DNA of 60,442 nt from Psammoneis japonica. Its lineage: Eukaryota. A model generated the notes under the pieces. It saw only the letters and a program-made list of their open reading frames with translations. It was not told where the DNA came from and did not search any database. Positions 8,001 through 57,629 of this stretch are shown one piece after another. The stretch covers positions 186,001 to 246,442 of the forward strand of contig QPGO01000125.1 of NCBI GenBank assembly GCA_008632985.1, written 5' to 3'. Position 1 is the stretch's first letter. Each line of letters starts with the position of its first letter. A program made the position numbers and the translations under genes.

Positions 8001-8261
8001 AATGCAGTGGTCTTGGCCGCCACACTTGGTGTTCCACAGTGGACGAGAAGGCATGCAAACAGGGAGCTTTGTGCTTGTTTCATCTTCGCAGATCTCGAGC
8101 AGAAAGCTTGCAGACTGTCCGCAGTTGAGAGGAGAAGCAGAAAGCTCAAAACTGGGCAAAAGTGAATGACTGGGGTGTGTCTGGACAGCAGCTGTCCGGA
8201 GAATGGGGATCATGCATGCAGCATGCCAAGCGTTTTCGTTTCATTGTCAAGCTCTCTGCTG

Positions 8262-8933: not shown

Positions 8934-9322
8934 TAAAGAGTGAAGAGTAGTACCGTAGGAACTTCTAGCTAGAGAATTTTGATTTTTTGGCAGAGCGACA
9001 AAAAAAAAACCCGCATCCCACGCGAGTCCCGAGTAGTACCGGTAGACAGAAACGCACGAGAATGGCTCACATTTTCTACAGTATCTACTTCTATCGGTAT
9101 TTCAACTTGTATTAGAAAATGGGCACAAGACTAGGACCATGATCGTCTTGATATCTTATGTGTCATCACAACCATGGGCATTGCTGCACCAGCATCTACT
9201 GACAAGATCTCGCTTGTAAGATACAATGAGAATGGCGAGCAGAGTGAAGCAACCAAGAAGTGAATGAAAAGAAGAAAGGTTCTTTCAAGCGGGTGTTACG
9301 TGCGTGTCATTCGTCGTTCCAA

Positions 9323-30185: not shown

Positions 30186-30469
30186 GGTGCGTCTTTTTTC
30201 CTCACAGAACGTGCGGATGTGCAGGTCTTAGAGGGAATTCGTGGGGTTGGTATGTTTGTACCGGTACGCACATGCACGTAGACGAATGAGAGACGAACCA
30301 CTCACCGTAGGAACCCGTAGGATATGTACCGGCAGTTACAAGTAAGCGGTAGCACAGTAAGAGATGTGCTGAGACGGACAGACGAGGGCGATGCGGAGCC
30401 CCGCCCGCCCGCCGCCCGCGCCTCGCCCATGGCTGGCTGGTGGCTCGGCTACGGCTGGGCGCCCATCCA

Positions 30470-33260
30470 CACCCAGCCCGCCCAGCCAGCCATGCCAAGG
30501 TTGTCCATGTCATCCAGAACCCAATCATCATTCTGAAGACACCATCAGCTTCAGCTTCTGCACAAAAGTTGCAGCAGCACCCAGCCAGAGCACAATCATG
30601 TTTGCCAGCAGTGTGGCGGAAGGGAGGAGGGGGCGGGGGCAACTTCTCTTTTTTTTTTCTTGACGTTCGCACAAAACACTCTGCTGAGCTCTGTGCTGTG
30701 CTTTCTCTTTTGCACACGCTCTCATCTTCCATCCTCTTGTTTTTCTCCATGCTCTGTCACTTTTTTGCTGTGCTGCAGTGCAAACATTCTCTGGCACACC
30801 CCCCACAGGCTCTTTGGCTTGTTGCAAAACACAGCGCCAGTGCAAGCTTCTTTGGATGACAGCCGCCACTTGAGAAAATCTTTGGAGACCAGTGCCAGAG
30901 AAAGCAAAAGCCAGATTGGCTTGCTTTCTGAGTGAGCAGCAAACCTGCACCACATGTGCACTTTCAACTGGGTTTCTTTCAGAGAGTGCACAGGTGGAAA
31001 AACAGGCTCGTCTCTCATCATTGGCAGAGAGTGATCATGGTGGGAGGTCACTTTGGCTCCTTGTGTGTTGGGAAGGCAGAGTTGAGCAGTCAACACAGCA
31101 GTGCAGCAGAGATCATCACACAACAACCTGCAGCTCTGCCACAGATTGTTGTCAAAATTGTCAAAAGGCTTTTTGACATTTTCTTGAGACCTTGTTCTGT
31201 CAAAAAAGTTTGACTTCTTTGGCAAAGCTCCTGCAGCAAAAATTTTTATGGCATTTTGTTGCACGCAAAGCTGTCAGCAGGTGACACAGCCAAGTGGCTG
31301 AAATGCCAAGCAACAATGTGCAGAAACTCATCACATGCTGAAATCAAGACAAAATTGCCACTTGCTTGTTTTTCTGAGAAAGTCATCTCTGCTGGTGTGA
31401 GCCCTTTTGCAAGAACTTTGTGCGAGGTCATGAAACCAGCACTTGGCCAACACAAAGTGTGCCCTTGATGTGCAATGCATCCCAACACACCAGCTCTCTG
31501 TCTGTCAGAGGGAAGTGATCTTGCCATCTCAACTGCTGAGCACAGCACTCCACCATCACCTCTGAGCAACTCAACACCTGATGGACCCATGTTTGGCATT
31601 CTCAAAAGGCAGGCTGCCCCTCATGCAAGCCAATGAAGAAGACATGACTCCCCAAGAATCATCAGGTGAGAGAGCTCAGCTTTCAGCACAAAACCCATGG
31701 AAAAGAGCGCACTGCACTTTCTTTCTAAGTTTTGGCAAAGTCTCTTCTCTCAAGATCTTCAGCAGCCACACCTGTGCCAATTTTTCCATTCTTGGCTGCC
31801 AACAAGAATTTTTAGAGAGCCAAAGATGATGAATGGCAATTCGTGGCGATTCCCCGGGAGTTCACCCTTCCCGTGGAAAAACATGGCAGAAGGTGGCAAT
31901 CCCAGGGAATTTTGAGAAAATGCACGGTGGGGCCAAACTGAGGCACACAGAAGGGCACAGCCAAGTTGTTGATGACTTCTGTTCAGCAACACACTGCTGC
32001 TGACAAAGCTGTCATCTTTGGGTGGATCTGCAACAGAACACGGGCTCTGCTGAGAAAAAACTTGGAGAGCTCTTGCTTGTTTTTTCTGTGGCTGTGGAGG
32101 CAGAAGGTCAGAACTTGAGATGGCAGTGCGTGCAAGTCATCACAAAGTCAATGGTCAGGCAGAGGTGCTGCTGCAGCAGAGAGGCAGTCTTGGAGCATGG
32201 ACACACTGACAGCATCAGCAAAACTGAAGGCAGCTGTGCTTGTGCTGCATCATGCACCCCCATGTGCGAGCATCGGGCAGAGACTGGACTTTCAGTTGGG
32301 CGGGTGCAATGCTGCCAGCTCTCAAGCTCTCACAGTTGAGCACCACTGTGGTCCCAGCTGGCTCTCTCCAGCCTGACAAGATTTGCCAGCAGGCAAAGCA
32401 GCAAAAAGAGACAATGAGCGGGCAAACACCAAACCACTGTTTGGTCAAGAGCACTTTGCCTGGCTGTGCCAACTGGAGCCACGTGCTGCTCCAAGGAAAA
32501 TCTGGCTCTAAATGTTTCCCCCAGCAACAACAGGATTTCCTGACAGCTGGCAGAGGGGAGCTCTGCCTCCATGAATTTGGAGTGGATTGCGTGCTCTTGT
32601 CCTTCCTCATCGGGTGGGAAGAAGGTGTGTGAGTTCAAAGAGGTTGTTGAGCTGGCAAGCGTGCATGGAAATGACTGGGTGCCATTGCTGCACACTTTCT
32701 TGAGGGGCTGTGCAACCAATCCTTGGAATTTTCTGCAACTTTGCAGGCCATCTTGGTCATGAAAAACTTTTTGAGTGCTGCATCAAAAGTGCCCTCTTTG
32801 CCACAGAGCAGCGCTTGCGTCATGCTGGCTCACAGCGCATCACTCCAGCCCCTCTTCAGCACGCGCCAAACAGAAGGCATGGTGACAAGGCATGGTGACA
32901 AGACAGAGACAGGGAAGACATTTGTGACATCCAGAGGAGCAGCAACACTCTTTTGTTGAACTGCCACCTTGGAAGAAAGCAATGTCGTTTTCTGTGTCAT
33001 CTTCAGAGCCCAGCTTCAGAATCAATTTTTTCTGGAGTCTGTCAGGGTTGCCAGTGTTTCAGTCAATGTGAGACAGAAAGCAGCCACTCAACATTTGGCA
33101 AAAGCTTGTGTTGATTTTCTGCTGCTTTCCTCTCGCACAATGTGCCAAGCACGCATGCCATCTTGTTTTGTTGTGCTGCACACACGAACGGACGAGTGAT
33201 CAAAAGTGCAAGCCAGCCAGCGAGCTGCCACAGCACCTCACTTCCCGTCGTCTGACTGGC
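30470..33260. other. TpA- and CpG-depleted hypermutated block 2 (unclassified repeat-derived DNA)
   Basis: About 4 TA in 2.8 kb by eye (31247, 31726, 31813, 32509); no recognisable protein. Confidence 0.85.
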
Positions 33261-34016
33261 GTTCTATGGTGTCGCACTAGCTCTGAAGAGTCGTCATTGT
33301 CATCCTTTCCGTCGGTTCCTTCCCGCCCACTCCCAGCTTGCTTGGTCGGTTCCATGACCTCCTGCCTTCCACCGCTGTAGGTCTAAGTGATGAATTCTGT
33401 ATCGACATTTGAAAAGAAGAGTTGTTAAATAGGCTGACAGGACAATGTCGTGCATCTGTAAACCAGGGCAGTTGGTCATCAGAATTCCACGTAATGATGT
33501 TTTCGTTTATGAACATTTTTATACGCTGGCTGAAGGGTAAAGGTGGTGGTAGCAGTCTACAGCACCGTATGGATGGTGTCCGGGTACTGTACACTGTAAC
33601 TTGTATGCCCGCATCATTCTTCAATTGTGTCTTTTTTCCGGTAGAGTAATTCCTTGCATTTGTTCGCTGCTAAAGTCATCAGTGCGTGCCGTCATTCTTT
33701 CGTTTTTTGTTCTTGGTACAAGAAGTATTCCCCACCTGCCGCACCAGCAGTTCCAACAGCAGGGGTCAGCGGGTACGACAAAAGTTAGAGAAGACTCGAG
33801 GACGATATCGATAGGCGAGCGCTTCAAAACTGCAAGTTAGCAGTAGACGAGCGTTTGCGTTGTTCCACCCATCTACTTGTGGGTGCACAGAATCAGTGTG
33901 GTAGGTGGTAGCACAAATAGATCGAGCGCATTCCTCCGGTTGTGCAGTTGTGTGCTGTCCTCATATACTATACTAGAGCAGATCGCGCCCCACGCACCCA
34001 TATAGCATACCATATA

Positions 34017-37879: not shown

Positions 37880-38570
37880 GTGTACAAGAAGTAGTACTGT
37901 ACAGTACAAGTATGTCCCAGTGCGCGTTCGCTTTATCGTACGTACGATATGTCCCCGTTCGTATGATAAGAGCTTATTATGTCCCAAAGCGTAAGGAGGC
38001 CTATATTAACAATACATAAATTAATATGTTATTATGTCCCAAAGCGTAAAGAGCGTGTCCCAAAACATAACGAGTCCTATATTAACATATAAATAAATGT
38101 TAACATTAATATGTCCCAATGCGTGACGAGCGTGTCCCATTATGTCCCAGTTCGAACCGAGCGTGTCCCCGTCCGATACGTACGAGGCCAATATTGACAA
38201 CTAGACATAATATCCCCGTTCCTCACGCTATAATGTCCCCGTTCCTGACGAGCGCGTCCCCGTTGTGTCCCCTATGGTGTCGTGGTGGTTATTAATTATG
38301 TCCCAAAGCGTAAGGAGGCATATATTAACAATCGTATAAATTAATAAATTATTATGTCCCAAAGCGTAAAGAGCGTGTCCCAAAACATAACGAGGTCTGT
38401 ATTAACAATTTAAAGAATGAATACATTAATATGTCCCAAAGCGTGACGAGCGTGTCCCATTATGTCCCCGTTCGAACCGAGCGTGTCCCCGTCCGATACT
38501 GTACGTACGAGGCCAATATCGAGAACTACACTATCTATAAACACAGGCTCAATATAAATGAATACATCAT
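37880..38570. repeat. TGTCCC-motif repeat with ~320-bp tandem duplication
   Basis: TATGTCCCAAAGCGTAAGGAGGC at 37978 and 38298; many internal TGTCCC units. Confidence 0.85.
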
Positions 38571-39429: not shown

Positions 39430-42400
39430 TTAGAAGCTTCGAGCTTTCTCCATCACACCTTCAATGGCAGCATTACCGGGAACATTGAACGAAGCCATGT
39501 CCTTCTTTCCTCCGCCCTTCCCATCAGTTCCTTCAACAGCCGCAGATGCCCAGGCCTTGCAATCTACATCCTTCATGCCCTTGGGTGCAAATGCCACCAC
39601 CATGAACCGATCTGTGGCCACATCAGCCGAAATCAACATGAGGGCCTTGTCCTTGATCTTTTTGCCATATGCCGTTGTCACAGATTTTGCAACCTTGCCT
39701 TGGCATCCAAAATCATGGCGTACTACAACCTTGTTCCCATCCGTCTCGGCAGCAGCAGCAATGACAAGTTCAACAATACCGGCTGTCTTGTCGGCATCTT
39801 TCTTCTTCTTGTAGGCAACCACCTTTTTCGAGTAATCAGCCAACACGTCTCGCAGCGCAACCTTTTTCACGGCCGAAATGTTCAAGTTATTCAACTCGAC
39901 CTTCAACGTCTTTAATTTGGCTTCCAATTCGTCACCGTCAAGAGCGCCAGCGGCAGTCACCTGGGCCTCAAAGGTTGCAGCCGCTTCAATCGCGTCCTTG
40001 GCGTCCTTCATCGTAACGGCGGTGATACGTCGGACACCCTTGGCGATACCTTCTTCGTTCAACAGGACAAAGCCTTCGGCCTGACTAGTGTTGGTCAGGT
40101 GAGTTCCACCGCAGAACTCGATACTGTATTCATTCCATGCATCGTCCTGGGGATTAGCCAATATGGTTGGAATGGGGTGAGGACCGACAGACACAACCCG
40201 AACTGGATCCGGGTACGTTTCTCCGAAAACGGCACGAAGGGAGGAAATCTTTTGGGCGGCATCCAGAGGGGCGACATAATCCTCAACAGGCACGGCCTGT
40301 TCAATGTGATTTTTGCAGATCTCTTCAATTTCGCTGAGCTGAGTTGTACTGATTGGTCCATTCCAAGAGAAATCAAACCGAAGCTTGCTCTCGTCGACAA
40401 GAGAGCCTTTTTGATCGACAGTCATGGTGGAATCCGAGTCTGCCTTGCGTACAAGAACTTCACGCAAGGCATAGTTCAGAACATGCGTCATTGTGTGATT
40501 GGCCGCAATGGGCGAGCGCCTGGCATAGTCTACTTTGCATGTAACGGCATCACCCTGGGTGACGGTACCCTCTGTCACTTTACCCACATGAAGGACGAAA
40601 CTTCCGTAGTTCTGAACATTGTCCACGGCAACTATAGCTCCAGATGCCGTCGTAAGGGTTCCCGTATCGTAGATTTGTCCTCCGGCTTCGGCATAGTAGC
40701 TTGTCTTGTCCAAAACTACGCCAATGGCACCGTCAGAAGCCGAAATGGAATTGACAAAACCAATCTTGTCTTCGGTTTCATTCCGTCCGACAAAAAGAGC
40801 CATGGCTTTGCAACCTTCGTAGTCTTGGTTCCAGACATACTTTTGGTCGTCTTGCGTTGCGGGAATACCCTTTCCAACCAAATGAGCCGTCTGCTCGGCT
40901 TGCAGCCGCATGTCCTTACCAGAGCCACCACTTGTCTTGGCACGGTGCGCCGCCGCGCTCAAGTCGTGCTCTTCCTGCATCTTGGCTTCAAAGCCATCCT
41001 TGTCCAGAGTCATGCCACGCTCTTCCGCCATGAGTTCGGTAAGATCCACCGGAAATCCCATGGAGGTGTACAAAAAGTGAGCGTCCGTTCCACTAAAGAC
41101 CTTGTCGGGTCCAACCTTGTCACACAAGTCATTGAACTTCAACAATCCCTTGTCGAGAGTCCTCGAAAAGGATTGTTCCTCGTCTTGAATGACCGCAGTC
41201 ACGTGTGCTTGCTTGGCCACAAGCTCGGGATAGGTTTCTCCCATGAGATCAACAATAGTCGGGACGAGCTTGGAGAAGAACCCCAACTCGGCTCCGAGAT
41301 TCTGTCGTCCATACCTTACAGCCCTTCGTAGGACACGTCGAAGGACATAACCACGTCCATCGTTGCTGGGCATGGCCCCATCGGCAATGGCAAAACACAG
41401 CGTACGAACATGATCGGCCACGACCCGATAAGCCATGTCGACAAAGCCAACATCTTGTGCTCCCAGTTTGCCGGCATAGGGCCGTGCGCCCGTGACTTGT
41501 TGAATCGCATCAAAAATGGGAAGAAAGATATCGGTATCGTAATTGGAATCGACATTTTGCAAAATGCTCGTGAGTCGTTCAAATCCCATGCCGGTATCAA
41601 TGTGCTTGGCGGGTAGCGGACGGAGACTTCCGTCGGCTTCGCGATTGTATTGAATAAAGACATTGTTCCAAATCTCAATCACGTCGGGCAAATCGGCATT
41701 GACGAGTTTGGAAGCATCCCGTCCTCCAATCCGGTCGTAATGAATTTCCTGTTGAACAAACAAAACAAAAAGCACAGATTATGTTAGACATGGTGAGGAG
41801 AAGAGCATCATTACAACAGCTTATCAACAGCATGTCCCAACAACGATACGCACCGTGCAAGGCCCACAGGGTCCGGTGGCACCCATCTCCCAAAAATTGT
41901 CCTTGGCATCAAAGGGCAAGACACGTTCGGGTGGTAGGTACTTGAGCCATAGCTCCCTCGCTTCATCGTCACAGGGCGTCATTTCATCACCACCAAAATA
42001 CGTGGCGTACAAGCGCGACGTATCCAATCCATACTCCTCCGTTAGACACTTCCATGCCATGTCAATCGCACCCTCCTTGAAGTAGTCTCCAAAGGACCTG
42101 GTGTGGATAGATGGGAGGTATGTTTGTTGTGAGTTGGATTCATACATAGATGAGGTTATAGATTTCAATCCTTACAACAATCATAAAGCATAGGGCTAGA
42201 CACATACATGACATACGCAACACATACAGTACTACTACTACTACATATCGCACTTACCAATTTCCCAACATTTCAAAAAAGGTATGATGATAGACATCCT
42301 TCCCAACATCATCCAAATCATTGTGTTTACCACCGGCCCGGATACACTTTTGCGAATTGCACGCACGCTTGAGCTTGGACAGTTCCAGATGCGGATCGGC

Positions 42401-42604: not shown

Positions 42605-43073
42605 GGTTTGCAGAGTAAATGATTTGTAACAATACTGTATGCTTTTTGTTCTTTTAAACACTCCTTCAGACGCGTTGTCGTCCGTCTCAACTCTCAACTC
42701 TTCAACAACAGCACCCAAAAAAGTTGAGACCGACCGAAGTTGAAAGTTCTGGGAACTGATGCGGACCAACAACACGCAACGCGCAAGCGAGCAACACGTG
42801 GAAGTGAGCGCGTCTGTCCGTGCATGCAACGTACCCAAACCTCTACAAACGGACACCTCTTTCAAATGAAAACTTGCCAAACATACTTACAGACACGCTA
42901 TCCACCACACAGATCTTTACGTAGGATTTGTACGAGGAATGATACCTTGCGACATAACATCAACAACATCACTCTCCTTCCAACAAAAAAAAGCAACGAG
43001 CAAACAGCTTTGTCTGTTATAGAGCGCTTGCCACTGCTGTTGCAAACAACAACGTGCTAGGCGATACTAAATC

Positions 43074-44902
43074 ATGAGTAGTAGTGACGAAGAAGAAAGT
43101 ATTGTTGGAGAGGAGGAACAAGAAGAAGTGACGGATCTTTCCAACAGGTGAGTGAGATCATGAGTACTTTTTCTGATCCCTCGATTTTGCTAGTCAAACA
43201 ATTCCTCACGTTTTTTTTGCATACTCTAACTAACTATTTCGTACTATAATTCTAAAGTGATGTTTGTACCAAGTATCAAGAAGCCGCCAAGATTGTCAAT
43301 CTGACGCTCTCGGGACTCATCACGCAATGTGTTGTTGGAGCCAAGGTTATTGACCTCTGTCAGGTAATTCTGGAACTGCAAACAAATCACGTGGATTTGA
43401 TTGTTTGTGGTCAAGTTTGATTAGAGCTTATCTAACGCTTCTCTGTCGTCTTATTGTTGTTTCACAGTTTGGTACCACGGTAATGGAAACACAAGCATCC
43501 AAGCTATACACCAAAAAGGTCAACGGTGTTGCTGTAGAACGGGGTGTTGCCTTTCCTGTTTGTGTTTCAGTCAATGATATTGTTTGTAACAACTCGCCAT
43601 TGGCGAGTGAAGAAGCGGTAAGTTTTTTGAAAAGACTGTATTCCGTGCTTATGTATTAGTCATGTTTGTCCTTGTTACTGCTCTCCTGTGGTGGTCGTTT
43701 CCAAGTGGACCACGATTGCGTGCTTCCTTTTCGTTCACGGCTTCTTTTACCGCCAATACGCAAGAGCGCGCTCGGACTGGTACACAGACCCAATTATGCA
43801 ATGCCATTAGGAAGATTAAAATCACCAACGTTGTGTTTGGAGGCGAGATTGTGGTTGATCTCTCATTGCGGGACGATCCCACGCTTCTTGTCTTGGAAAT
43901 AATAGTCTTGTCTTGGAATGCGCTTTTTCTGTCATTAGAATCAGACCCTCTGTATTCATGGTCGTATGAGTGTGTTTCACAAGATTCTAACCATACACTT
44001 GCTTTTCTGCAATAATAGGAACCACTGAAAGCGGGCGACATTGTCAAGCTCGATTTGGGATGTCACATTGATGGTTACATTGCCGTGGCGGCTCACACTC
44101 TCATTGTGTCGGAAACACCCGATGCTCCTCCCTCGGACGTGAGTGACGAAATGGGCAATGTCGCGGTGGCTGCCTACAATGCCATGTTGGTGGCTGCCGC
44201 CAGCATTACGGCGGGAGCGAAAAACAATCAAGTTACCGCCGCGGTCGAGCGAGTTGCCAATTCCTATGGCGTCAAACCCATTTCGACTGTACGCATGCAT
44301 CAAATGAAACGATACGTCATGGACGGGGTCAAGGAAGTCAATCTCAGGGAACCCAAACCGGAAGATTTGGAAGAGGGAGAAGAAAAGGTGCCCGAATGCA
44401 CCTTTGAACAGGCAGAAGTCTACGCGGTCGATGTGGCCATGTCGACCGGTGACGGAAAGGCCAAGCCTTCGCCACTCCGAACGACCGTGTTAAGCGCAAT
44501 GTCGAAGTCAACTACAAACTCAAGATGAAGGCGAGTCGCGCAGTATTGACGGAAGTGGATAAAAAGTTCCCCACCTTGCCCTTTACGCTTCGTCATTTTG
44601 AAGACGAACGAGTTGCCAAGATGGGTATCAACGAGTGTCTTTCTCATGGACTCGTGACGCCTTATCCCAGTCTCTTGGACACGTCGGGCAAGGTGGCACA
44701 TTTCAAGTGTACCGTCCTGCTCCTGCCGTCGGGGACGGTTCGTGTGACGGGACTCGACTTGCCCGACTATTTCAAGACGGACAAGCAACCCGACGAGGAG
44801 ACAGCCAAGGTTTTGCAAGAAATTGCAGAAGCTGCTGCCAAAAAGGCCAAGAAAAAGGCAGCCAAGAAGAAGAAAAAGAAGAAGGCTAATACTTCTGCAT
44901 AG
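43074..44902 (+). CDS. PA2G4: Proliferation-associated protein 2G4/EBP1 (M24 fold), multi-exon; probable missing T at ~44490
   Basis: TKYQEAAKIVN, GVAFPVCVSVN, DLGCHIDGYIAVAAHT, EVYAVDVAMSTG, FPTLPFTLR, VAHFKCTVLL, Lys-rich tail. Confidence 0.95.
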
Positions 44903-47900
44903 ATATAATGGTAGTAAAGAAGTAGTAGGTGAGGCACTTATGAATACATTCCGGGTTTCGTCTGTTGCTAGCACTTTGGCGTTGTCTGGAAATGTCTGCC
45001 AAACCAAATCGAAAGATTGAGCGATGCTGATGCAGGGGAGGGGCATCAAGTGGGGATGCCGACTTCTTGACAAAAATCGCCCCGCGATGTCCGAATTCCA
45101 GTCCGTGTGTGTCTACTAAGCTAGTCTGCAGGCAAATTGTCGATTCTGGATTCGCAATTCAAAAAACTCGTGACTCACGCATCACGCAAGTCATCATCAA
45201 CACGGCCCCAGACCAGGCAAAAACAAAAAGCTTGTTCCAAAAGCTTGTTCCAGCTCTGTTCCTTTGCATTGTGGGTCTTGTGCTGCCATCACTTGAGCTG
45301 GAACACATGCAGTCAAACTTTGACAGCAGCTTGATTGGGGTCAGGCCGGCAAATGTGGCACGCAACAACAAAAAGCTGCTGGGTGCACTCTTTCTTTCAT
45401 TGGAGCTTCTGGCCCACTTCTGTCCATTGTTGTGTGTTGCACACTTTCTTTCCTGCCAACACAGTGGAATTTTTTAGAGGACAAGCATTGCCAACAGCCA
45501 ACTTTTTTGGTGCTGTGTCAATGCCCCGCCCAGCACTGCGGCCATCAGCTTCTTGTGCTGCTCCTCAGCCCTTTGTGCAGTTGAAGCATCACGGAAGAGG
45601 AAGCAAAACAACTGATGGTGCAAGCCATTGAGACATTTGTGCTGTCTTTCACAGGGGAGGTTTCTTGTGGATGTTTGTCAACACATGACAATGCACAGCC
45701 TGCTGCATCCACGGCATTTGGCCACCCCCTGTTGCCATTGGCTTCTTGAACCGCCACCCCCCGCATGTGCTGCCCATTGGTCTGACTGCCACATTACATT
45801 GTGCATTGTTGGGGCTGGCTGCATCCTCCACAACAAGCTGCAAAGTTGCCGACAGAAAATGCTGCAAGAACATCAGTTGCTGTGCCAACTGGCAGCAAGG
45901 CAAACAATGATGAAAAGCAGAAGATGCAGAGAGGGTTGGCACAGGCCCGTCATTCCCAAAAAAGAAGAGTGTGCTTGAAAGCTGTCAAACAGTGCCAGGG
46001 GGCAGTGGACTCTCCCCATGCTGTGGCAAAAATTTGCATTGCAAGGAAGGCGCACCCTTTTCTTTGAAGACATTGATGGCTGCACGCTGTTGTGGATTTC
46101 TTTTGTTGCTGCTGATGCTGCTGTTGCTCAAAGGGGAGAAGAGAAGAGGCAGACTCAAGTCTGTTTGCTCCATGGGACCTGAGATTGTGAAAGTTCAGCT
46201 GAGGACTGCTCCAGGAAAAGCCCCCAATTGGAAAGACTGGTGGGCCAAGCAAGTTGTTTGAGCAGTTGAGTGGAGTCAAAAACTCTGTCAGCTTTAAGGT
46301 CAATCAGGATGAGCTGACTGCAGCTGCATTTGAAAAGTGCCAAAAAAGTGCAGTTCAGGCTGGGCAGATGAAGCTCAAGGGAAATTTCTTGAAGCCAGGT
46401 GATGCGCGCAACAGCGCAGTTGCAAAGGACTGTGCGCAGTGCCTCAGGGACAAAAAAGAAGAAGAGGAGGAGGACATAAAAGAAGTCAGTTTGGCTGGGG
46501 CCAATGAAATTGAATGCCATGATTTGCAGCTCAGGATTCTGTCTGAGGAATTTGCAAAATGCATCAAACTGCTTGAGCAGCTTCTCATGCATGAAAAACT
46601 TGCTGCCAAATCTGAAATGCTGCACACTTGTGGTGTGAGACACCAATGCTTTCTTGCACTGCTGCAGCCACTGGTCTGTCAAGCATGACAGCAGCCACTG
46701 TTTCAAGTTGTTTTAGAGGCATTGCCGTGTTCTCCACTCAAACCTTGAATGCAGGAGACCATTTTCTCTAATGTGTCAATGCCAGATCCCCTTGGCCTCT
46801 CTGCAAGCTCAATGATGCAAAAGCCAAGTCATCAAATGACCTTCAGAATCTCAGCAGGCCTGTTCCAGCCCCAGGTGATGAGCAATCCATCATGTGAGAG
46901 GCTGATTTTCTGTGCAGTTTGGCACATTGAACTCCTTCAAATTTGATCATTTTGAAAATCAAAAGGTGAGTGCACACAAAAAACATGAGTTTGTTTGTGC
47001 ACTCACCCTTTGATTTGGGAAAAACTGATTTTGAAGGAGTTCATTGCGCCAAATGCAAAAATGAGCCAGTGATGGGAATCGAGCCTGTGCACGTCACCTG
47101 GAGCTGGAGCAGGCCAATGGCAAGCAACATCAGGCTTTGTTGTCTGCATCACATGCACTGTTCCATTGCCTTCTTGGCATTCTTGGAATCAGCCCAGCAA
47201 TCAGCTGCCTTGTGGCTGACTTTGCCACGCATGCTGCACCTTTTCAAACAAGCTTTCAACTGCTCTCTTCACTGCAGTCACATTGTCCAGGTTTGATGTG
47301 GTGGCTGGCGCATGATTTAATCAAATTTCTCACATTCCTGAGTTGCAGGGTCTTTTGCTGGCAAAACCTTGGCAGGAGCAGACTTGGCTGCATCAGAGTC
47401 TCTTGGCTTGGTTTGCAGATGACAGCTGAGTGGATCAACAGATTTGACAAAATCATTGTCCATCACACCACAAGGCGTGCCACACATCTCTGAAGGTGTT
47501 CTTTTTGTTTGGTTTTGTTGGCTCACACTTGATCCTCATTGACAGGCTTGGGGCAAACTGCCAAAGAATGAGATGAGTGCCACAGCAGCCAGAGCATGAA
47601 ACCACACATTTTGGTGGTCATGGTGAGCCATTTTCACTCAATGGGAGTGACAAATGCTGAGTCTTGGCTGAAGCACAGAGCAAAGAGATGGCGACACCAG
47701 AGGCGGAGCTGCCAGAGGTGGTGGTCATGCCACCAAACTTTTTGAGCTTGGAAGAAGTCTTGATGAGATGATCCAAAAGACAGCCAAGCTCTGGCCCACA
47801 AGAAGCCAGTGGGAATTGCAGACTGACCTTTCCAGTCTTGAAGATTTTCAAGTCTTGAATGGCCACCAGCACAGATGAAAGAGACAACTTTGCTGATGCC

Positions 47901-50900
47901 TTCTCTGTCAAAGCTGGCAATCTTGAGGCTGATCCTGTCATCAGAAACCAAACAGAAAGTGCCTTCTTCCAAGTCACTTTGCTGCATCTTCATCACAACA
48001 ATGAAGAACAGGGAGCTGAGAAGCATTCTTGGCAAAGTGGAGTTGTGGGTGAGATGCAGATTCTGGCTTGCCCAGGTTTCATCCAGATCCTCAAGTGCCA
48101 CGCTGTGCTTTTTGCAGCAACTTCTCCACTTCCATGATCATGAAAGCAATGTTCCATGCAAAGGTCATGGCCTTTGAAAGCGGCGGGGTTGATGATTTGA
48201 AAAACAGCAGCCACCCATGTTGTGCTTGATGTGACTCAAGCGCATGGTCAAAATGGACTCAGCCAGATCACAGTTGCTTGTCTTGAAGCTTGTTGTTGGT
48301 GTTGTTGATGTTGATGATGAGAAGGTCAAATTTCATCTGCTGCTGCTTGGCTGTGGCTTTCTGGAACAAATCTTTGAGCTTGCCTGGGTCTAAACTGGGC
48401 CTTGGCATGCAGGGCTTTCACCAGAGTTTCTTGGGGTTTCTTGGGGCAGCATGCACTTGCACTTTCCTGCCATTGACAACTGCTTCCATTGTCATGGCCA
48501 ACTTGGCTGTCAGACAGGCTGGCTTCTTCAGACAAGGCAGCTCAGGAGCAGCATGCTGGAAGGCAGCAGGCTGGTGTTCTTTGACGAACTGCTGGTGTCA
48601 AAGGATTGCACACCAAATGAAGTTGAGTCTTGGCCACTGGCAGACTTGTTGTCATTGTCCAACATGCGTGGTTTGTCAGGTGGGGCGAGTTGCCAGAATT
48701 GCAAAAATGCTTTGTTGCTCCTGAAGAAGCAAGTGCCATTGCATTTCTGCTGCAGAGGTGGCTGGAGCATGATGCTTGGGCTCCCAACCTGTGACGACTC
48801 TTGGCTGAGAGCAAACTGTTGGCCAAGCATGGGGATGACATCACTGGCAGTGCAGCCAGCAACAACAGACAGTGTTGACATGCTCTTGTTGTTGTCGCCA
48901 ATGTCTCATCACACCAATGATGAGATCATGAGAAAAAGTTGAGAAGACAGCTTCAACACAAAGAAAGTGGGAAACCACACATGCAAGTGTGGAGCATGCA
49001 CAAACTGTGCATGAGTTTGCACTGTGTTGACAGGGTCTGCCAGTTTCAGAGGTTGTCCTCACAATGTCTGTCCTCCAGGGAGTTGCTTTGGCAGGAGCCC
49101 TTTGATTCCCATTGTGAGTGATGGTCCCTGCCTGTGTGATGGTGTGCCACATTGTGCACGAGAAGAGCCAGGTGAATGTCATCACTGTGGTGGCAGAAAC
49201 TCTGCCAACTGCTGGAGGGCTCAGGGTGGCAAACAGACATTTTTGCCAACCGTTGCTGGTTGTCAACTTTCTGTTGTGAAAGAGAATTGCTTGGCTGACT
49301 CAAATCAGTGCAGTTTGAGCAGAGTGAGCAGCAACCTGCAAATTTTTGTGGGAAAGTTGCCAACAGCATCATGAGTTGGTTGTTGCTGGGACAACTCAAA
49401 CAGAAGCTCAACAAAGCTGTGGCTGGCTTGAACAACTCTGCTGTTGCAGCCAGAAATGAGGCTGGCAATGGTTTGGGAGAGGAAAAGCCCCCCTCCTGTT
49501 CCAAGCACGCTGTGCTTTGTGCCAATGACTGTTGAAAGATGAATGTGCCAAATCCATTTTTGGCAATTGCTTCTTGACAACAACATGGAACCCCGTGTGT
49601 TGCTCATGCAACATGGCTTTTGTGCTGCTGGAGCACGCCAGATGGGAAGGCAATGAGGTGACAGCTCAGTTCAGTCATTCAAAGATGGGCATGTTGGGAG
49701 AGCAAGCTGCCAGAAAACAGCACACACGTGCTGGCTCTTTAAATCCTGCAATTTGTCCTGTTCTTTTCACTGCCAATTTTTGTGGCACTTTTGTCCATGG
49801 ACAAAAGTCGGCCCCCTTGGGCAACAGTCAGTGTGACAGATTTCAAAGCTGCTCAAATGAGGGGCAAAGCAATGCAATGCAGAGAGGTCACCCAGCTCCT
49901 TGGAGTTGATCCAAAAAGGGTTGGTGTTTGCTCCATTTGGAAAGGTGCATCTGCACATTGCTGCAATGGGGGCACATGTCTGGTCACATGCTGGGTGTCT
50001 CCAAGGTCATGAAAAAAAGAGGAAAAAGAGAAGAAGAGGAGAGAATGCCACATGTTCAATTTGCACATGCAACGGCAAGATGTTTTGTGCTTCTCATGCT
50101 GCTGCAATGACACAGATGGAAACAACAGACCATCCATGATGTGGCAACAATTGATGATCAATTTTGTCACCACACCTTTTCCTTCCAAAAATGTTGATTT
50201 GTGACATCCACATTTTTTCTGTGACAAGTGTGTCAATGGCAAGAGAGGTGAGAAAACATCCAAAAATGGACAGAAGCTCCTTCTTGTGGCTGCGCTGCTG
50301 CTTGGACTCTAGATTTTCACAACTTGCACAGCAACAGCCTGTGTTTTCTGTTTGCTGCCAAACCTTTCCCACCAAAACTGTCCTGCTGACAAGCAGCATG
50401 CTGTGTTTCTGTCTGACAATGGCGCCAATGAAAAGAGAAGCAGCAGCTGACAAAACCCAAACAAGCAGGGCAAACGAAAGCCCTTTGTGTGGCTTTGCCA
50501 CAAGACTCAGGCTCTCAGCTCTCACAGCTTGCTGTGCACTTCAATTTGAGTCATTTGCACTTGACAGATTAAAGGTTGACTCTCAGGGATTAAGTGCCAG
50601 GTTCTGTTGTCACATTGTGCCTGTGAGTGGCAGCAGCAGCAAGGCTGCTTGGTGGCCCAGCAGCTGGCTCTGTGTGAAATGGCTGCAAAAGGAAAGGATC
50701 CACCTGCAACACAAGAGGCAAGTGATCAAGAGTGCATTTTGCTGTGGTTTGGTGTCAAAGGAAATGTGTTTGTTTGTGGCACTGTGCTGGCAAGACCAGC
50801 TGCAGGGTGCAGCTCTGTCAGTGACCAACCTGGTGGGAAGCTCTCCTCTCATGACATTGGCATTGGGTCAGATCATGCAGCTGCGCTGCTCTGCCAGCTC

Positions 50901-51772
50901 TGCATGAAAATGATTGCAAAAGGAAAGGAGCCACCTGCAGTGCAAGAGACAAGCAGCCAAGTTTCCTGTGGCAGGCCACTTCTTGAAGAAGAAGCGCTGC
51001 AGGCAGCAGCTGCACTCTAGACTGGCCAGCCACAAAAGATGAAAGGACCATGATGTTGCCTGCAAGACAAAAGGACCACATTGACTGCAACTGGCACCAA
51101 ACAACTGCAGGAAATTTTCTTTTCTTCTGAGGGAAAATCCAGGGGAGCAAGAGCAGCTCAGCATGACCCAAAACCCAGCTCTTGTGCTCACACATGATGT
51201 GCACATTGATTTCCCCCTCATTGGCTTGTTGAACAAAGGAAACAAAGTGGGTTTCCTTTTTTGTTTTGTTGCACAATGTGAGCCAGATTTGTCACACCAA
51301 CTTGAGCTTTTGTGGGCTTGCTTGGAAAAGAGAGCACACTTGAAGAAACCACAGAAGCACATCTTTTTGCCCTTGAGAAAGTTCCCCCCCCCCCCCCCCC
51401 CATGGCATCTGCCTCACTCATTGTTGAGCGCAGTGCACAAAGAATCAGCGTGTCTTGGCAGCCACAGGCTCTGGACAAATCAACAGCCAGATGAAAGGAT
51501 CATGATGGTTGCAACTGCGCACTGAATTGCCAATGAATTTTTCCTTGCCTTTCCTTGTCCAAGGAAGTTTGGGGCCAAACAAGCAATTCCCCATGATCAA
51601 AAACCCCAAATGATGCAGCGGCTGGCATGTTCACAGATGATTCCATCTGCGGCATTGCCATCAAATTTGCACGCTGGAAAAATGTGCAGATTTCTGCTTG
51701 TTGTCATCAAAATGGAGTTTGCATCATTGTCAAATTCTGCACAAACCCTGGTGCATTTCCTGTGCAGTTCAT

Positions 51773-51928
51773 GAAGAGCCACCTGTGCAGCTGGACCATT
51801 GCCCACTTCACGGTCGCCACACAAAATGCAAAAAACTGTTGCCAATGATGGAAGAGCCACCTGTGCAGCTGGGCCATTGCCCACTTCACAGCCGCCACAC
51901 AAAATGCAAAAAACTGTTGCCAATGATG
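51773..51928. repeat. 78-bp tandem repeat, 2 copies
   Basis: GAAGAGCCACCTGTGCAGCTG...GCCAATGATG at 51773 and 51851. Confidence 0.95.
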
Positions 51929-52199
51929 CCTGCATTGCCAAGGTCTGAGCTCCAGATTAGAAGCACCACAGCAGCTGACAAAGACTCTGCTGCCATCTGC
52001 CATGCTGTCCAGTTTGTGGCATGATGACAATCACAGGAGTCAACAGGTTGCATTGATGCATTGGCTGTGTCACTTGTTGATTGACCCCCCTGATGAAAAA
52101 TTGCAAAAGGAACTTTTTCCATGGTGTGCTGAGTGTTGTTGAGCATGCTTTCCAGAAAAATCATTTGATTGCAGCGAAGCATTCCATGCTCTGATGCAC

Positions 52200-55120
52200 A
52201 CTTTTGGCTCCATGTTCACCTGTTTTTGTGCTGGTTTGTGATGTGGTTTGTGCCAAGAGTGTGATGTTGAGCTTCATGTGCTTGCACTGCACTCCTTCTG
52301 ATCACACTTCCCCAAGCAATCTGCTTGTGTTGGTTGACTTGTGCCAGGCAGCTGGAACAAAAACACAAGACACACACACGCACACACAGCGACCACCATC
52401 AAGACACCTGCATGAACCATGTTGGGTCTTGAGGTCCTGGTGCTGTTGAGACTTTTTGGGAGACATTTCCCAAGCAGGCACATGTCAAGGCATGCATCAC
52501 CACTTGGAAAGCAGCTGTGTCTGCTGTCACAAAAGAAAATGTTGACTCGCTCCTCTTGAAGAAAGCCACTCAGAAGGCTTGCGACTGTGTGGCAAGTCTC
52601 GCTCCAAAAAATCAAAAAGAACTCACTGCCATTTCAGATTCAAGTCATCTTGTTGATTTGCTTTTGACACTCTGTTGCCAACACAGGTGTGGGGAATGCT
52701 CAATCATGTCATCCTGGACCAGCACCTCAACAATGGTCTGATGGCACTGGACTTGCTGGGCTGTTGGTGAAATTTCAATGACAGCGCTGCTGCTGACTGT
52801 CCAGACTGTGAGTGCTTTTGCCACGGCATCAATGGAGCTGTGCTTCTCCATCTGGGCACAAACACTCACAGCAGACAGCAGCAGCTTGGCAACTTGGGGC
52901 ACTTGCTCATGATGAAAGACCTTTTGGCTGTGTTGGCAAAATCTCTTTCATTTTCCAGCAACGCCAAGCACTTGCAAGCATTGGCACAACTTGGCAGAGT
53001 TTTGAGCTCAAACTTGAAAACTTGGAAAGGATTTCTGCTCATGACTGCAGCACTGGTGACTTGAGCAGCTTTGTGCCAGATTGGAAGCAGGTGCTGAGGA
53101 CAGAAATCATGCACTGACCATGCTCCAGAAACAGCACAAGTTCAAAGATGACCACAAACCCCCATTTGTTGATGCCCCCAACAGCTTCAAGGAGTTGAGT
53201 GGGGCCCCAATGTTGTGCAATGCAAGGCACCATTGGCCATCTGTGGGGCAAGAAGGCTCGCCCTCAACTGCAGCAAACATTGGAGGAGTGTTCCAACCAA
53301 TGGACACTTCAGAGCAGCAGCCTTCCTGTTTGGCAAGGGGTGTTGCTCAAGGCAGCTCACTTGGCATGCCATGTGCACTTGCCCATGAATTGAGAGCTTG
53401 GTTTCCCAGCGCACTTGCCCCTTGATGCACAGATGGCTCATCTGCACACCAGCAGTGGAAAGACTCAACAGCCTTTGGGATTTTTCCTTGACACTTTGAG
53501 CCACGGGTCCCATGAGCATGATTGCTGCTCCACACCAATGACTCCAAAACACCCCCCTGCCACCATCGTCCCAGAGTGCAGCCTGGAAAATGACACCAAG
53601 AGCTGCTTTGGTGATCTTGGGTTGCCTTTCCTGTCACTTCACAGGCAGCCATTGTGATCTTGGAGGTTTCATTGGCAAGAACAAAATGTTTGAATGGCAG
53701 ACAGACAACAGATCTGATGTGCGGACCTCCTCTGTCATCAACAACAGTGTTGCCAAGAGTGCAGCTCATCACCCTCAGATTGCACATGCCAGTTTTCAAA
53801 AATCCCTGAGCCATCATGAAAGTGACAATGTGCTCAACGAGTTTCAAAGGACTGTTGTGGGCCATTTGCCAATGAAGTCAAAGGGGCAGCCAAGAATCAA
53901 TTCCTCCTGTTTCCTGTGCTGCTTGTTGTTTGCAAGACCCCAGCTGATGATGACCCAAGAACAGCCTTGTCAGCCCTCCCAATCAAATTTGCAGGACTGT
54001 CTGTCTCACATTCAATGAAGTCTGCAGCACACAACTGCGGGGCAAGCACTCTCACATGACCCCACATGATTGACTCAATCCATGGCTGTCCCACACCCAG
54101 CACCCTGGCGATCCAGCACAAGGACATGCATGGTTCATGAAGCAAGGTGTGAAACAGCCAAGAGGAAAGTGCAAGTGCACGAGGAAGCACTTGGATTGAT
54201 CTTCTGCACTCTGCTCAATGAAAGGGCCTGAGCTCTTTAGAGCACGGCACCAAAGATGGTGCTTGGTTGTCAGCACATCCTTCTGCACCTGGCGGCACCA
54301 TCACTGAGCTCTCTTTTGCCAAAAGTTTCAGGGGGGCTGTTTGTGCACACCATGGCCAAGATCCTCCCAGCCTGCCCCAGTGTTCGATGGTTTTGAGTGC
54401 AAATTCTCCATCCAACATGCCCTTCAATGCAAGAGGGGTGGACTTGTCATCTCTGGACAAAACGAGAGAGCCATGAGGAGGTCATCAGTGCGACCTGTTG
54501 GCCAAGACAGCCAAACAGCCTTCTTGCTCAGCTTGCAATGAGCCCATCATCAGCCTTGGTTGCACCTCACAAAGCCCAAATGCCACAATCCAACAACTCA
54601 TCAGGTGCAACAGCAAATGCAATCAAATCAAAAGATGGTGATTGTGGAGATGTTCCAGTCCGTGGCTGGCAAGAAAGATCAGAGGCTGACGACGATGCTT
54701 CATTTTTGATGTTGGAGTTTCTGACACAGATGCCAAGAAGTCATGCCTGTCCAAATCACCAGAAAATGGTCCCAGTGGCTCATGAAAAAGAGAAAAAATG
54801 CAGGTGTCTCAAGCCCTGCCTTGCCAGCATCATCGTTTCACACTTTTCACGACATCTTTTGCGGGGGGGCTGGTCTCTTGGCAAAGAAGCCAAAGCAACC
54901 CTGCAAATGGCAACAGCAGCACAGTTCATGGACAACAAGTGACAAAAGCCACACTCTGAAGCACACAGCTTTGTCAATGCAAGAATGAGCACAATGATTG
55001 AGAGGGCATCTCACCACTGCCTGCGTGGTGGCTGGAGAACCCCACATCAGCCACCCCCAGCTGGTGCCAGATGTTCCCAGTTGGAAGATGGTGCTGCTGG
55101 TCTTTCCCCATGCAAGCTCC
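52200..55120 (+). mobile_element. Degenerate CRE-like non-LTR retrotransposon (RT + CCHC finger + restriction-like endonuclease); 5' limit approximate
   Basis: Ordered fragments: RPFG.VG, EAGAE..NHA, FVDAPNSFKEL..MLCNARHHWP, GVAQGSSLGM, LGGFIG, HPQIAHASFQKSL, KFSIQHALQCKRGGLV, GDVPVRGW, HEKEKKCRCLKPC, LGKEA, RASHHCLRG. Confidence 0.8.
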
Positions 55121-55391
55121 AAGTCAAGCCAAGCTGGTCATTTGTGTGCAATGAGACTCCACACGAACACCGCACGCCCCGAAGCTCTTCACAAGGATTC
55201 TGCAAGACTGTCAAAGCACAAAGCAAGAGAGTGGGTGCAGCGCCAGAATCCATTCAAGTGCGCTCGTCGCGGATGCCAACTCATTGCGCGCAAATGACCA
55301 CAGGGAAACGTTTTGAAAAAATTGATGACCACACTTGAATGACCACCGAAGGCAAAAAGAAAAAATCAGCACGACGTTGTACTGCATCACC

Positions 55392-56830
55392 ATGGAGCGA
55401 CGTCGAAGGCATGGCGTTCCTGTAGCGACGGTTTCGAGCGATCAAGACGTCATATCCACTTTGCAAAGTTCTCATTATCTGCAACCGCAACAGCCTCGCA
55501 AAGGTGCTAGGCCATGTTCGAGCAGGAAGAACAACAGGGGTCGTTTCGAGATCTCTTTATTGTTGATCGTTATTTCCATCCTCGGGATGCTGAAGCAACG
55601 AACACGAACAACGTTTGAATTGTTGGACCCATTGTGCACATGGCGAGTACACAGGCGGGTACTTGCCATGCGAGGGGAGGAGTGCGACGACGTCATCGCT
55701 TTGCCTCATGAGTTGACAGCGGACGACTTGATGGGCGACATTAACAATGATCATTTCGAGCAGCCAGCAGCCATTTCCAACACTCGCGATACTGAAGGTG
55801 GCTGCATCCCAATGCATCCATGGCAAACTACCCAATTCCCATCATGCAACATGCTTCATGAAATAATGTCATCACCCAATGAACTACGACGCATAAACAA
55901 AGGCTCGCAAAGTATTGTGTTTGAAGCGCCACCATCTGGAAAACAGGGACTGATCCTTGAAACTCAGAAATATAGCAAGAGCAAATTCAACTCCGATGGT
56001 TTTAAGCAACGTCGGTACGATGCAATAATACAGGAACGTCTCTCGGCGTCACCATATGTTACGCCCATGTACGGATTCTGCGCCATGAGCGTTTTGGCCC
56101 CATTGGCCCCGGCGGAACAACTTTGCAGAACTATATTGATTCTGTTCGCGGCGGCGGTCAGGAGGCCTCCTCCTTAGACAAGCTCCGCATAGGTGTGCAA
56201 GTCGCCCAAGGGCTTGCGGCTTTGCACAGCATTGACCATGACGGCCGACCGAGCTTTGCCCACAATGACCTTGACGTCTCCCAACACGTTTACTTGAATG
56301 GTGTATTTCAGCTGAACGACTTTAATTTTGGTAGGATGTTGCTGCACAATCCGCAGGAGAATAATGCGACCACCTGCAAGGACTCGTCGAGAATGGGTGG
56401 GTGGAAATACAGGGCGCCAGAAGACCTGGCAGACATTTATGGATATCCTGGTGGAGGACCTTTTCTGATGGATAAGGCAGATGTATTTAGCATGGGAACT
56501 GAGTTTTACTCAATCATTACCAACTTATGGTTGTGGGAAAAAGACTCGAGACGAGAATCCGCCAAGCGCATCATTGCCGGTGAACGACCGCCACTCCCCG
56601 ACAGAGTTTTGCAAAGCACTGACGAGGCACTTGATGCTTTGATAAAAGCCATGAACATGTGTTGGAAGCAAGATCCGGAAGAAAGGGCAACTGCGCGTGA
56701 GGTGGCAAAATTTTTGATGGGAGAGTTGCACAGATTGAATAAGGGAAAAAGTGGTAAGAACAACGATGTGGTGACGGTGAAGTTGCCACCCTTGGTACAC
56801 GGACCGGATGATTTCAGTGATTGTATGTGA
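55392..56830 (+). CDS. Membrane-anchored protein-kinase-like protein (PKDCC-like); probable missing C at 56107-10
   Basis: TM helix, CIPMHPWQ..FPSCNMLHE, QERLSASPYVTPMYGFC, AHNDL, LNDFN, YRAPE, KADVFSMG, CWKQDPEER. Confidence 0.85.
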
Positions 56831-57084
56831 GTTTAGCTGCCTTGCACATTAGGGACTGTTGAACCCTTCACAAGAAGAAACACCAGATCTTTTGAGGGAT
56901 TCGCCGCGGGATGGCTCTCATAACAGCTACACTGTTTTAGCTACAATCGTAGATACAATTAAGCAGAGTACACGTGGAGATACTGTATTATCCCACTCAA
57001 ACGGAATATATCATTGAAGCAATTTCTCGCGATCGTCGGTACTAAAGTAGCTTGACAGTAGCAAACCTACCGTACAAGTATCGC

Positions 57085-57438
57085 TCAAAGCTTGGATCGA
57101 GGCAAGAACTGTGTTGTTGCAGTCAGAACTGCTGTCAACTTCATTGCCAAACCCATGTTTCCCTTGATTTTGAGCTTTCCCTTCATAAATGCTTGTTGCG
57201 GGCTCATTTTTTTCGACAGCAACTGCTGCATCACGTCCAGTGAAACATTGACTGTCAGATCGGCAATGTCGGATGCTCCCTTTGATAATTTTCCATTCTT
57301 TGCATCCAAACACCACGTTTCACCGTCTTCAATGTTAAAAACAACACAGGCCTTGAACTTTTGTTTCAGTTTGCTTCCGCTTTCTCCCTCCAATGCCTGC
57401 CCCATGGCCGCGTAGATTTCCTCCGCAGATGGCTGCAT
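57085..57438 (-). CDS. SCP2 sterol-carrier domain protein, peroxisomal (PTS1)
   Basis: ADLTV..PQQAFMKGKLKIKGNMGLAMKL; C-terminal SKL. Confidence 0.93.
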   Translation of the reverse strand: MQPSAEEIYAAMGQALEGESGSKLKQKFKACVVFNIEDGETWCLDAKNGKLSKGASDIADLTVNVSLDVMQQLLSKKMSPQQAFMKGKLKIKGNMGLAMKLTAVLTATTQFLPRSKL

Positions 57439-57629
57439 TTTGAACACAGGAATGTTTCCGATTCTGTTCTCTATTCGTCACTACCCAACGATGTCGTTAA
57501 GAGAGGCTCACAGGCTAAAATGCAAGTAGCACCACACTTACTGGTAGAAACAGGAACCGCTCATGCATGCTGCATACCGGTACCGATACTGTACCGTCGT
57601 CGCAGTCGTCAGTGGCGGAGAAAACGACA

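Follow-up and report, generated by a model that had tools for sequence, protein, structure and literature searches.

A stretch of 60,442 nucleotides from the diatom Psammoneis japonica (contig QPGO01000125.1, positions 186,001 to 246,442 of the forward strand; hereafter the window) contains three blocks from which the dinucleotide TpA (TA) has almost disappeared. In these blocks TA has been changed to TG or CA on both strands, within domains that are mostly sharply bounded and with a clear preference for certain flanking bases, and the change extends into a conserved host gene. In our judgement this is probably the result of an in-place, region-limited hypermutation of TpA of the kind described for the alga Bigelowiella natans. 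The three blocks are the following (CG, TG and CA values are ratios of observed to expected numbers):

45123 to 55379, no strand: block 3, the main hypermutated island, with 15 TA in 10.26 kb, CG about 0.17 and TG+CA about 1.8; an M24-peptidase gene lies to the left and a protein-kinase gene to the right
30451 to 33264, no strand: block 2, hypermutated island with 4 TA in 2.8 kb and CG about 0.23; it adjoins a ribosomal protein S7/S5e gene
5162 to 8391, no strand: core of block 1, hypermutated island with 11 TA in 3.2 kb; CG partly lost (0.30–0.74 by bin)

Loss of TpA and CpG in the three blocks

Near-total loss of TA was confirmed in all three blocks by dinucleotide counts. An earlier reading made from the letters alone (the sequence-only reading) had noticed about 15 TA in about 10 kb and a like pattern in two more blocks, and the counts agree with it. 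Between positions 45130 and 55370, 15 TA were found against 667 expected from base composition (observed/expected ratio, o/e, 0.02), together with 105 CG (613 expected, o/e 0.17), 1170 TG (629 expected, 1.86) and 1146 CA (650 expected, 1.76). The interval 4150–8390 contained 17 TA (266 expected, 0.06) and 164 CG (263 expected, 0.62), and the interval 30470–33260 contained 4 TA (174 expected, 0.02) and 41 CG (175 expected, 0.23). Over the whole window the TA o/e was 0.45. When 500-bp bins were used, the background lay mostly at about 0.3–1.0, whereas all bins from 45001 to 55000 were at or below 0.12. The GC content of 45130–55370 (0.489) was close to that of the whole window (0.479). Application of the thresholds of the B. 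natans preprint selected 15 of the 60 1-kb windows, and these fell in runs of 10 (block 3), 3 (block 1) and 2 (block 2, which is split by the window phase).

The blocks have sharp edges. The last and first ordinary TA were located at 45122 and 55380 for block 3 and at 30450 and 33265 for block 2, and the right edge of block 1 was placed at 8392; the left edge of block 1 (about 3600–4200) is the only graded one. The longest stretch free of TA measured 2280 bp; across the window, successive TA are separated by a median of 14 bp. In comparison with the background, TA plus CG decreased in the blocks by 0.079 of all dinucleotides and TG plus CA increased by 0.075, the total of pyrimidine-purine steps being equal (0.239 in the blocks and 0.244 in the background). 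This is the pattern expected from transitions at TA and CG alone. The dinucleotides AA, TT and AT are still common in the blocks, the depletion being confined to TpA and CpG.

Block 3 holds 1172 TG and 1148 CA. Their order gave z = 0.34 in a runs test, no 500-bp window went beyond z = 2.4, and strand-coordinated patches were detected in this block neither by the runs test nor by the 500-bp skews. The equal and unclustered TG and CA indicate that both strands were hit and exclude the editing of a single-stranded RNA or cDNA intermediate. Since TA is its own reverse complement, A→G on one strand is not distinguishable from T→C on the other.

The TA that survive are strongly biased in their flanks. 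Among the 30 found in the block cores, 25 were YTAR (Y, pyrimidine; R, purine), 3 YTAY, 2 RTAR and none RTAY, whereas the 1759 TA of the background were distributed as 14.6%, 26.2%, 26.4% and 32.9%, respectively (binomial p for the excess of YTAR, 8e-17). Expressed as density relative to the background, TTAA, CTAA/TTAG and CTAG were retained at 0.20–0.31 and every other TA class at 0.02 or less. This indicates that the reaction is favoured when a purine precedes the T, when a pyrimidine follows the A, or when both are the case. Of the 35 TA remaining in the TA-poor zones, 6 lie in the heptamer TTTAGAG/CTCTAAA (31813, 45475, 46714 and 54238; in reverse complement, 4700 and 32509). This sequence may be protected in some way, or it may just be the context that resists the reaction best.

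The loss of CG follows a different course. The TA and CG o/e values were about 0.1 and 0.85 in the half of a gene that adjoins block 1 (see below), 0.06 and 0.62 in block 1, and 0.02 and 0.17–0.23 in blocks 2 and 3. TA is therefore almost gone where CG is still near normal, which makes the CG loss separable from the TA loss and slower. Relative to the background, the most depleted CG contexts in blocks 2 and 3 were of the YCGR type (TCGA, CCGG and CCGA/TCGG, 0.05–0.07) and the least depleted was GCGC (0.77), a flank order opposite to that of the surviving TA.

Direction of change in a paralogue pair and in a host gene

The direction of the change was established with two internal comparisons, in which the following segments were involved:

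5599 to 6387, plus strand: mutated paralogue in block 1 (segments 5599–5793 and 5855–6387), matching DNA of normal composition 3–5 kb away
9166 to 11605, plus strand: unmutated counterparts (9166–9357 and 11081–11605), internal reference for the substitution spectrum
4195 to 5161, minus strand: 5' half of a conserved diatom gene, TA-poor (TA o/e about 0.1), with normal CG (o/e about 0.85) and no Tyr
3176 to 4194, minus strand: 3' half of the same gene, with an ordinary TA density of 7.7 per 100 codons and its Tyr kept

Segment 5599–5793 aligns to 9166–9357 with 85% identity and segment 5855–6387 to 11081–11605 with 73% identity, the latter reference falling in the N-terminal part of a CobW-domain open reading frame (ORF; 9444–11948, minus strand). 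The copy of normal composition, which retains ordinary TA and CG and is unmutated, was taken as reference over about 720 aligned columns. All 12 TA of this copy were changed in the block copy (7 to TG, 4 to CA and 1 to GA), and no TG or CA of the normal copy corresponded to TA in the block copy. Of its 46 CG, 33 had become TG or CA and 8 were retained. Counted per strand, A→G was found at 11 of 24 sites after T, against 6 of 105 after A, 10 of 114 after C and 11 of 88 after G; C→T was found at 35 of 91 sites before G and at 5 of 118, 9 of 76 and 5 of 68 before the other bases. A→G is enriched after T (11/24, versus 6–12% after the other bases). The block copy also carries indels and transversions relative to its paralogue, as in old DNA. 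The two homologous segments are 62 bp apart in block 1 (5793–5855) and 1724 bp apart in the normal copy (9357–11081); the interval 9357–11081 encodes the CobW domains, which were either lost from the block copy or gained by the gene.

The second comparison was provided by the ORF at 3176–5161 (minus strand, 661 amino acids), for which 24 relatives were retrieved, the best with 56% identity over 95% of the length; the only organism named among them is a diatom. The TA density within 3176–4194 declines gradually toward the block, over about 3600–4200. Columns were scored as Tyr-majority when Tyr was present in at least half of 13 aligned relatives. At the 8 such columns up to residue 323, the window protein has His at 6, Cys (TGC) at 1 and Phe at 1, the His codons being CAC or CAT where the codons of these columns were inspected; at the 3 columns from residue 558 onwards, all three remain Tyr (TAT or TAC). 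With a 70% Tyr rule, 5 of 5 columns were replaced in the N-terminal part and 0 of 3 in the C-terminal part (Fisher p 0.018). The first 315 residues of the window protein contain no Tyr, against 4–11 in its relatives.

General divergence at conserved columns was alike in the two halves of the gene (27/114 and 52/197), indicating that the TA loss outran ordinary change. In 10 of 14 environmental loci with orthologues, those which cover the N-terminal half, the TA density of this half was 8.4–18.5 per 100 codons, compared with 1.9 in the window gene. In the 14 metagenome loci around orthologues, a small sample of 63 kb, TA-free runs did not exceed 256 bp. As judged from these alignments, a conserved host gene has been caught in the mutated domain and its Tyr codons apparently rewritten to His or Cys. 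A change of TA to TG or CA can never make a stop codon, and hence the open frame of 3176–5161 is no proof of function.

Content, read support and surroundings of the blocks

The former identity of the blocks was sought by several searches. No family was recognised when all three were translated in six frames, with stops treated as X, and scanned with Pfam, and none of 124 stop-to-stop pieces of at least 75 amino acids from the blocks matched below E 0.005, weak matches being to unrelated families. A HMMER search with 1179 residues (frame +0 of 48235–51771, a single frame covering a third of block 3) against 1.84 billion proteins yielded no hits. No relatives were obtained in IMG/VR scans with the ORFs 50158–50904 (plus strand) and 6897–7595 (minus strand), and a sequence search of the PDB with the latter returned chance matches only. 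This 233-residue open frame of block 1 has a repeating pattern which, to judge by its translation, looks like a parallel beta-helix. Neither a pair of long terminal repeats or terminal inverted repeats nor any other flanking direct or inverted repeats were found around block 3, and no remnants of reverse transcriptase, integrase, gag, transposase or viral proteins were detectable in the blocks by these searches. Because TAA and TAG are gone and only TGA is left as stop codon, long ORFs in the blocks mean little.

The target had been taken in the sequence-only reading for a fossil retrotransposon. With no Pfam family, no terminal repeats around block 3 and no homologue for the stretch that contains the proposed motifs, that part of the claim finds no support. 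The motifs themselves, HPQIAHA and KKCRCLKPC, do lie in frame at 53770–53790 and 54793–54819. They match no known protein, however: a word-index search with 53542–55335, which holds both, gave no match, the only candidates being proteins of 328–1047 amino acids, and the Tyr replacements read from these motifs are thus unverified. The blocks are partly repetitive, degraded DNA of unrecognisable origin.

The sequence-only reading had asked for support from reads, and this was obtained for block 3. Of the words sampled from 46000–54000, 80% were present in a public DNA run (X1, of unrecorded library type and possibly from the source sample). Its contigs were compared over 43000–57500, that is, block 3 and its flanks, and tile this interval in pieces with 3–8 differences each. 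The word depth was about 57–66 in the flanks and across most of block 3. This indicates that the sequence of block 3 is reproduced by a haplotype or strain that is not letter-identical. Most of the block is single-copy by depth and as TA-free as its repeated parts.

Inside block 3, the X1 contigs and the window differ at about a dozen CpG/TpG/CpA sites, and TG/CA doublets were seen at 47906–47907, 49089–49090 and 50816–50817. These doublets suggest that, in two haplotypes or strains, one ancestral TA or CG may have mutated separately and on different strands. Further adjacent double differences occur at 45359–45361, 47227–47228 and 49595–49596 (TG versus CA, or CpG pairs resolved differently).

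Three repeated features were distinguished in this block:

46857 to 47115, no strand: palindromic element, about 259 bp long and present in very many genomic copies, with halves 72% complementary and an inner 27-nt hairpin at 46956–47016
50260 to 51711, no strand: moderately repeated part, summed word depth about 360–710
51773 to 51928, plus strand: tandem duplication of 78 bp, 96% identical and TA-free

The summed word depth rose from about 60 in the flanks to about 3000 in the depth bin that holds the palindromic element (46872–47355). Many contigs stop exactly at both borders of this element, which looks like a high-copy repeat resembling a miniature inverted-repeat transposable element. 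The 78-bp duplication is already TA-free and therefore arose after the mutation. One contig in X1 and one in a second run (X2) join about 45 letters (45312–45356) to about 58 letters of the kinase gene (56730–56787), with several mismatches. A paralogous transcript or gene with high coverage is the probable source of this joint, which hints that the left end of block 3 holds a fragment of a kinase gene. In run X2, the left flank shows GT..AG joints and block 3 is almost uncovered; this was not taken as evidence of silence.

The window is a gene-dense diatom nuclear region in which the blocks form intergenic islands. The alanyl-tRNA synthetase ORF at 39430–41778 (minus strand) has a best relative with 75% identity; its best relatives with a species name come from diatoms, namely Seminavis robusta (73%), Cyclotella cryptica (71%) and Odontella aurita (70%). 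According to Pfam, the other genes encode a CobW-domain protein, HA-domain proteins, an M24 peptidase, a protein kinase and an SCP2 protein, in addition to the following:

29423 to 29983, minus strand: ribosomal protein S7/S5e gene (Pfam), adjoining block 2
1014 to 2447, plus strand: ORF with a beta-carbonic-anhydrase domain of the LCIB/LCIC type (Pfam E 3e-55), a gene family of the carbon-concentrating mechanism

A direct repeat of about 300 bp with 79% identity and ordinary composition (28749–29074 and 29140–29436) immediately precedes block 2. A 77-bp tandem repeat forms two arrays, with about 2 copies each and 82% matches, at 37980–38459 in a TA-rich intergenic stretch beside an Ipi1_N-like ORF; the arrays are 89% identical to each other.

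Proposed process, alternatives and significance

The sequence-only reading had proposed a regional, context-specific A:T→G:C process at TpA, and the paralogue pair and the Tyr→His/Cys changes in the host gene both speak for it. A region-limited process would turn TpA into TpG or CpA (A:T→G:C at TpA, on either strand), in place. The agent may be an enzyme that deaminates adenine in DNA, the resulting inosine pairing with C; for this step taken alone, we would put the chances slightly below even. Recruitment would depend on a chromatin or silencing state rather than on sequence homology, and the role of the process might be the inactivation of foreign or selfish DNA. The process may still be active today. 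A second, slower loss of CpG to TpG or CpA would take place in the same regions, most simply by deamination of 5-methylcytosine in silenced DNA, given the known methylation of repeats in diatoms. The combined effect would be to push all pyrimidine-purine steps to TG and CA.

The closest precedent is B. natans. In mutation-accumulation lines of this alga, the mutation rate of two integrated viral regions is about 1000 times that of the remaining genome; 230 of the 231 new mutations in these regions are A→G or T→C, and all such GC-biased ones fall on TpA according to the authors, who describe in the main text 124 clusters poor in TpA and rich in CpA+TpG, enriched for reverse-transcriptase and DDE domains and for unannotated genes, and propose, without proof, an ADAT2-like deaminase (10.64898/2026.01.13.699255). 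The exclusive change of TpA to TpG or CpA, the action on both strands, the kilobase domains depleted of TpA and enriched in CpA+TpG, and the many affected regions without annotation are common to that account and to the window. There are also clear differences. B. natans is a chlorarachniophyte (a rhizarian), whereas the window belongs to a diatom (a stramenopile). The process is saturated here (TA o/e 0.02), in contrast to a Rho TpA of 0.45 given in the preprint for a region of nucleocytoplasmic large DNA virus origin. The window shows strong CpG loss and a preference for RTAY over YTAR, whereas the word CpG and the terms context, trinucleotide and flanking are absent from the main text of the preprint. 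Reach into a conserved host gene is seen here, unlike in that report. The B. natans targets reported there are integrated viral regions with a measured rate, whereas the process in the diatom is known from the pattern left in DNA of unrecognised origin. Literature outside the subscription journals yielded this preprint as the sole description of the TpA signature. Searches aimed at diatoms found no report of it, and the words diatom and stramenopile do not occur in the main text of the preprint. The earlier statement that no description was known thus holds for diatoms, but not in general, the same signature having been published in 2026 for B. natans. The signature as a kind rests on one preprint and one distant alga, to which the window adds a second lineage.

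Other known systems resemble the diatom case in part. Fungal repeat-induced point mutation (RIP) also places dense transitions of a specific context on both strands of DNA that is duplicated or silent, and ruins coding capacity. However, its CpA→TpA change adds TA and reduces GC, whereas TA is destroyed here and GC is 0.49 versus 0.48; moreover, RIP mutates all copies of a duplicate, whereas the partner segments at 9166–9357 and 11081–11605 are normal in TA and CG. Deamination of 5-methylcytosine accounts for the CG→TG/CA component (33 of 46 CG in the paralogue pair; o/e 0.17–0.23 in blocks 2 and 3), but it is unable to remove TA, and the CG loss has an unusual flank order (YCGR most, GCGC least). 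The sequence-only reading was thus right that neither RIP, which makes TA, nor 5-methylcytosine deamination, which covers the CG part only, explains the TA loss. APOBEC3, ADAR, TadA and ADAT2 use base deamination to hypermutate invading nucleic acid, which the process proposed for the blocks may share. APOBEC enzymes, however, change C to T at TC or CC, and ADAR acts on RNA, neither being the TpA change in DNA seen here. Amphioxus ADAT2 deaminates both A and C in the DNA of E. coli, with a preference for GAA in the case of adenine and for TCG in that of cytosine, and not for TpA (PMC10354150).

Several alternatives were weighed against an adenine-based, in-place process. The same regional process could work through thymine, if the T of TpA were oxidised or hypermodified in silent chromatin (to a base of the 5-hydroxymethyl- or 5-formyl-uracil type, by a TET/JBP-like dioxygenase) and mispaired with G, giving T→C. 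The palindromic nature of TA means that all observations fit this route equally well, and it counts against an adenine target; some protists place modified thymine preferentially at TpA, and 5-formyluracil is mutagenic toward T→C. We regard it as rather improbable, since no sign of such a base in diatoms was encountered and the sole experimental precedent, as presented in the preprint's main text, favours a deaminase, itself unproven. A homology-triggered mechanism like RIP, in which duplicates are recognised and mutated at TpA instead of CpA, seems to us still less probable. Fungal RIP acts on duplicated sequence as such, but the partner copy 3–5 kb away is unmutated. In favour of the mechanism, block 1 does copy neighbouring sequence, and the depth points to about 6- to 50-fold repetition of parts of block 3. 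Many diatoms carry DNMT4 enzymes, which may form a moderately supported family with fungal RID (PMC9998398). Nevertheless, the TA-free state extends equally over the larger part of block 3, which is single-copy by depth, the mutation enters a gene whose 3' half is spared, and the main target in B. natans is described in the preprint as single-copy (10.64898/2026.01.13.699255).

The remaining explanations deserve very little credence. A-to-I editing of an RNA intermediate by an ADAR- or ADAT-like enzyme, followed by reverse transcription and integration as in hyperedited retroelements, would agree with the TpA context that RNA adenosine deaminases favour according to the Discussion of the preprint (10.64898/2026.01.13.699255), and also with the union in the block 1 copy of two segments that lie 1.7 kb apart in the normal one. 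It predicts, however, TA→TG on one strand, and fails on strand symmetry, as TG and CA occur intermingled and in equal measure; the blocks yielded no reverse transcriptase, and the change runs unbroken into a gene in its native position with the 3' half untouched. For these reasons we consider it extremely improbable. Systematic base-calling errors at modified bases of a long-read assembly are hardly more credible. Nanopore consensus sequences can contain miscalls of modified A as G and of 5-methylcytosine as T, which would match the direction of change, but contigs from another read set (X1) match block 3 with 3–8 differences per piece and flank-like depth, and the block copy carries indels and transversions relative to its paralogue. 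As implausible as RNA editing is a native composition, that is, foreign DNA already poor in TA and CG on arrival, or selection against TA. TA and CG are under-represented in many viruses and genomes. However, an o/e of 0.02 over 10 kb is far below 0.45, the lowest Rho TpA among the phycodnavirus genomes compared in the main text of the preprint (10.64898/2026.01.13.699255). This explanation is also contradicted by the paralogue pair and the host gene, both changed in place, and the blocks hold no recognisable coding sequence on which selection could act.

An in-place TpA hypermutation of the B. natans kind thus remains the reading that we prefer, with several results weighing against it or against parts of it. 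None of the searches (Pfam, HMMER, word index, IMG/VR) showed the target to be foreign or mobile, and the copy of host sequence and the part of a host gene in block 1 fit a defence against invaders poorly. Column 305, one of the Tyr columns of the host gene, is also His in the two closest relatives, and the state at that column may be ancestral. Confirmation by reads concerns block 3 only, and X1 may be the assembly's own sample. As to present-day activity, the sole TA/TG differences seen between X1 and the window are at 46478, one of the 15 remaining TA of block 3, which is TG in X1, and at 44994, outside the block and 128 bp beyond its left edge. Finally, no enzyme was identified: a deaminase domain was found neither in 18 ORFs of at least 150 amino acids nor in 94 further ORFs of at least 95 amino acids outside the blocks, in line with the earlier remark that the window encodes no candidate enzyme, which holds for the ORFs scanned.

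Until 2026, to our knowledge, no cellular system was known to erase TpA from chromosomal DNA. With respect to B. natans, the window adds saturation, internal controls, a preference for certain flanks, an accompanying decay of CpG and an extension into a host gene, and the occurrence of the signature in a diatom suggests that the mechanism is widespread among protists of the SAR group (stramenopiles, alveolates and rhizarians), including main primary producers of the ocean. Any responsible enzyme is constrained to act on both strands, to prefer RTAY over YTAR, and to work faster than, and separably from, the CpG decay. A natural DNA adenine deaminase acting on chromatin would, if true, be of interest for base editing. 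The loss of Tyr, the gain of Cys and His, the absence of TAA and TAG stops and the resulting long spurious ORFs explain why such regions escape annotation. A wider proposal, which we hold only tentatively and think more doubtful than the deaminase step itself, is that diatoms and chlorarachniophytes share a genome defence that deaminates chromosomal adenine at TpA, best at RTAY, in silenced domains. One and the same deaminase might also cause the YCG-biased loss of cytosine, and the activity would spread with the silent domain into genes, turning Tyr into His or Cys and never creating a stop. Collateral damage of this type appears to have reached a conserved host gene in the window. If the shared defence exists, it would both kill invaders and be an unrecognised source of protein change in these algae.

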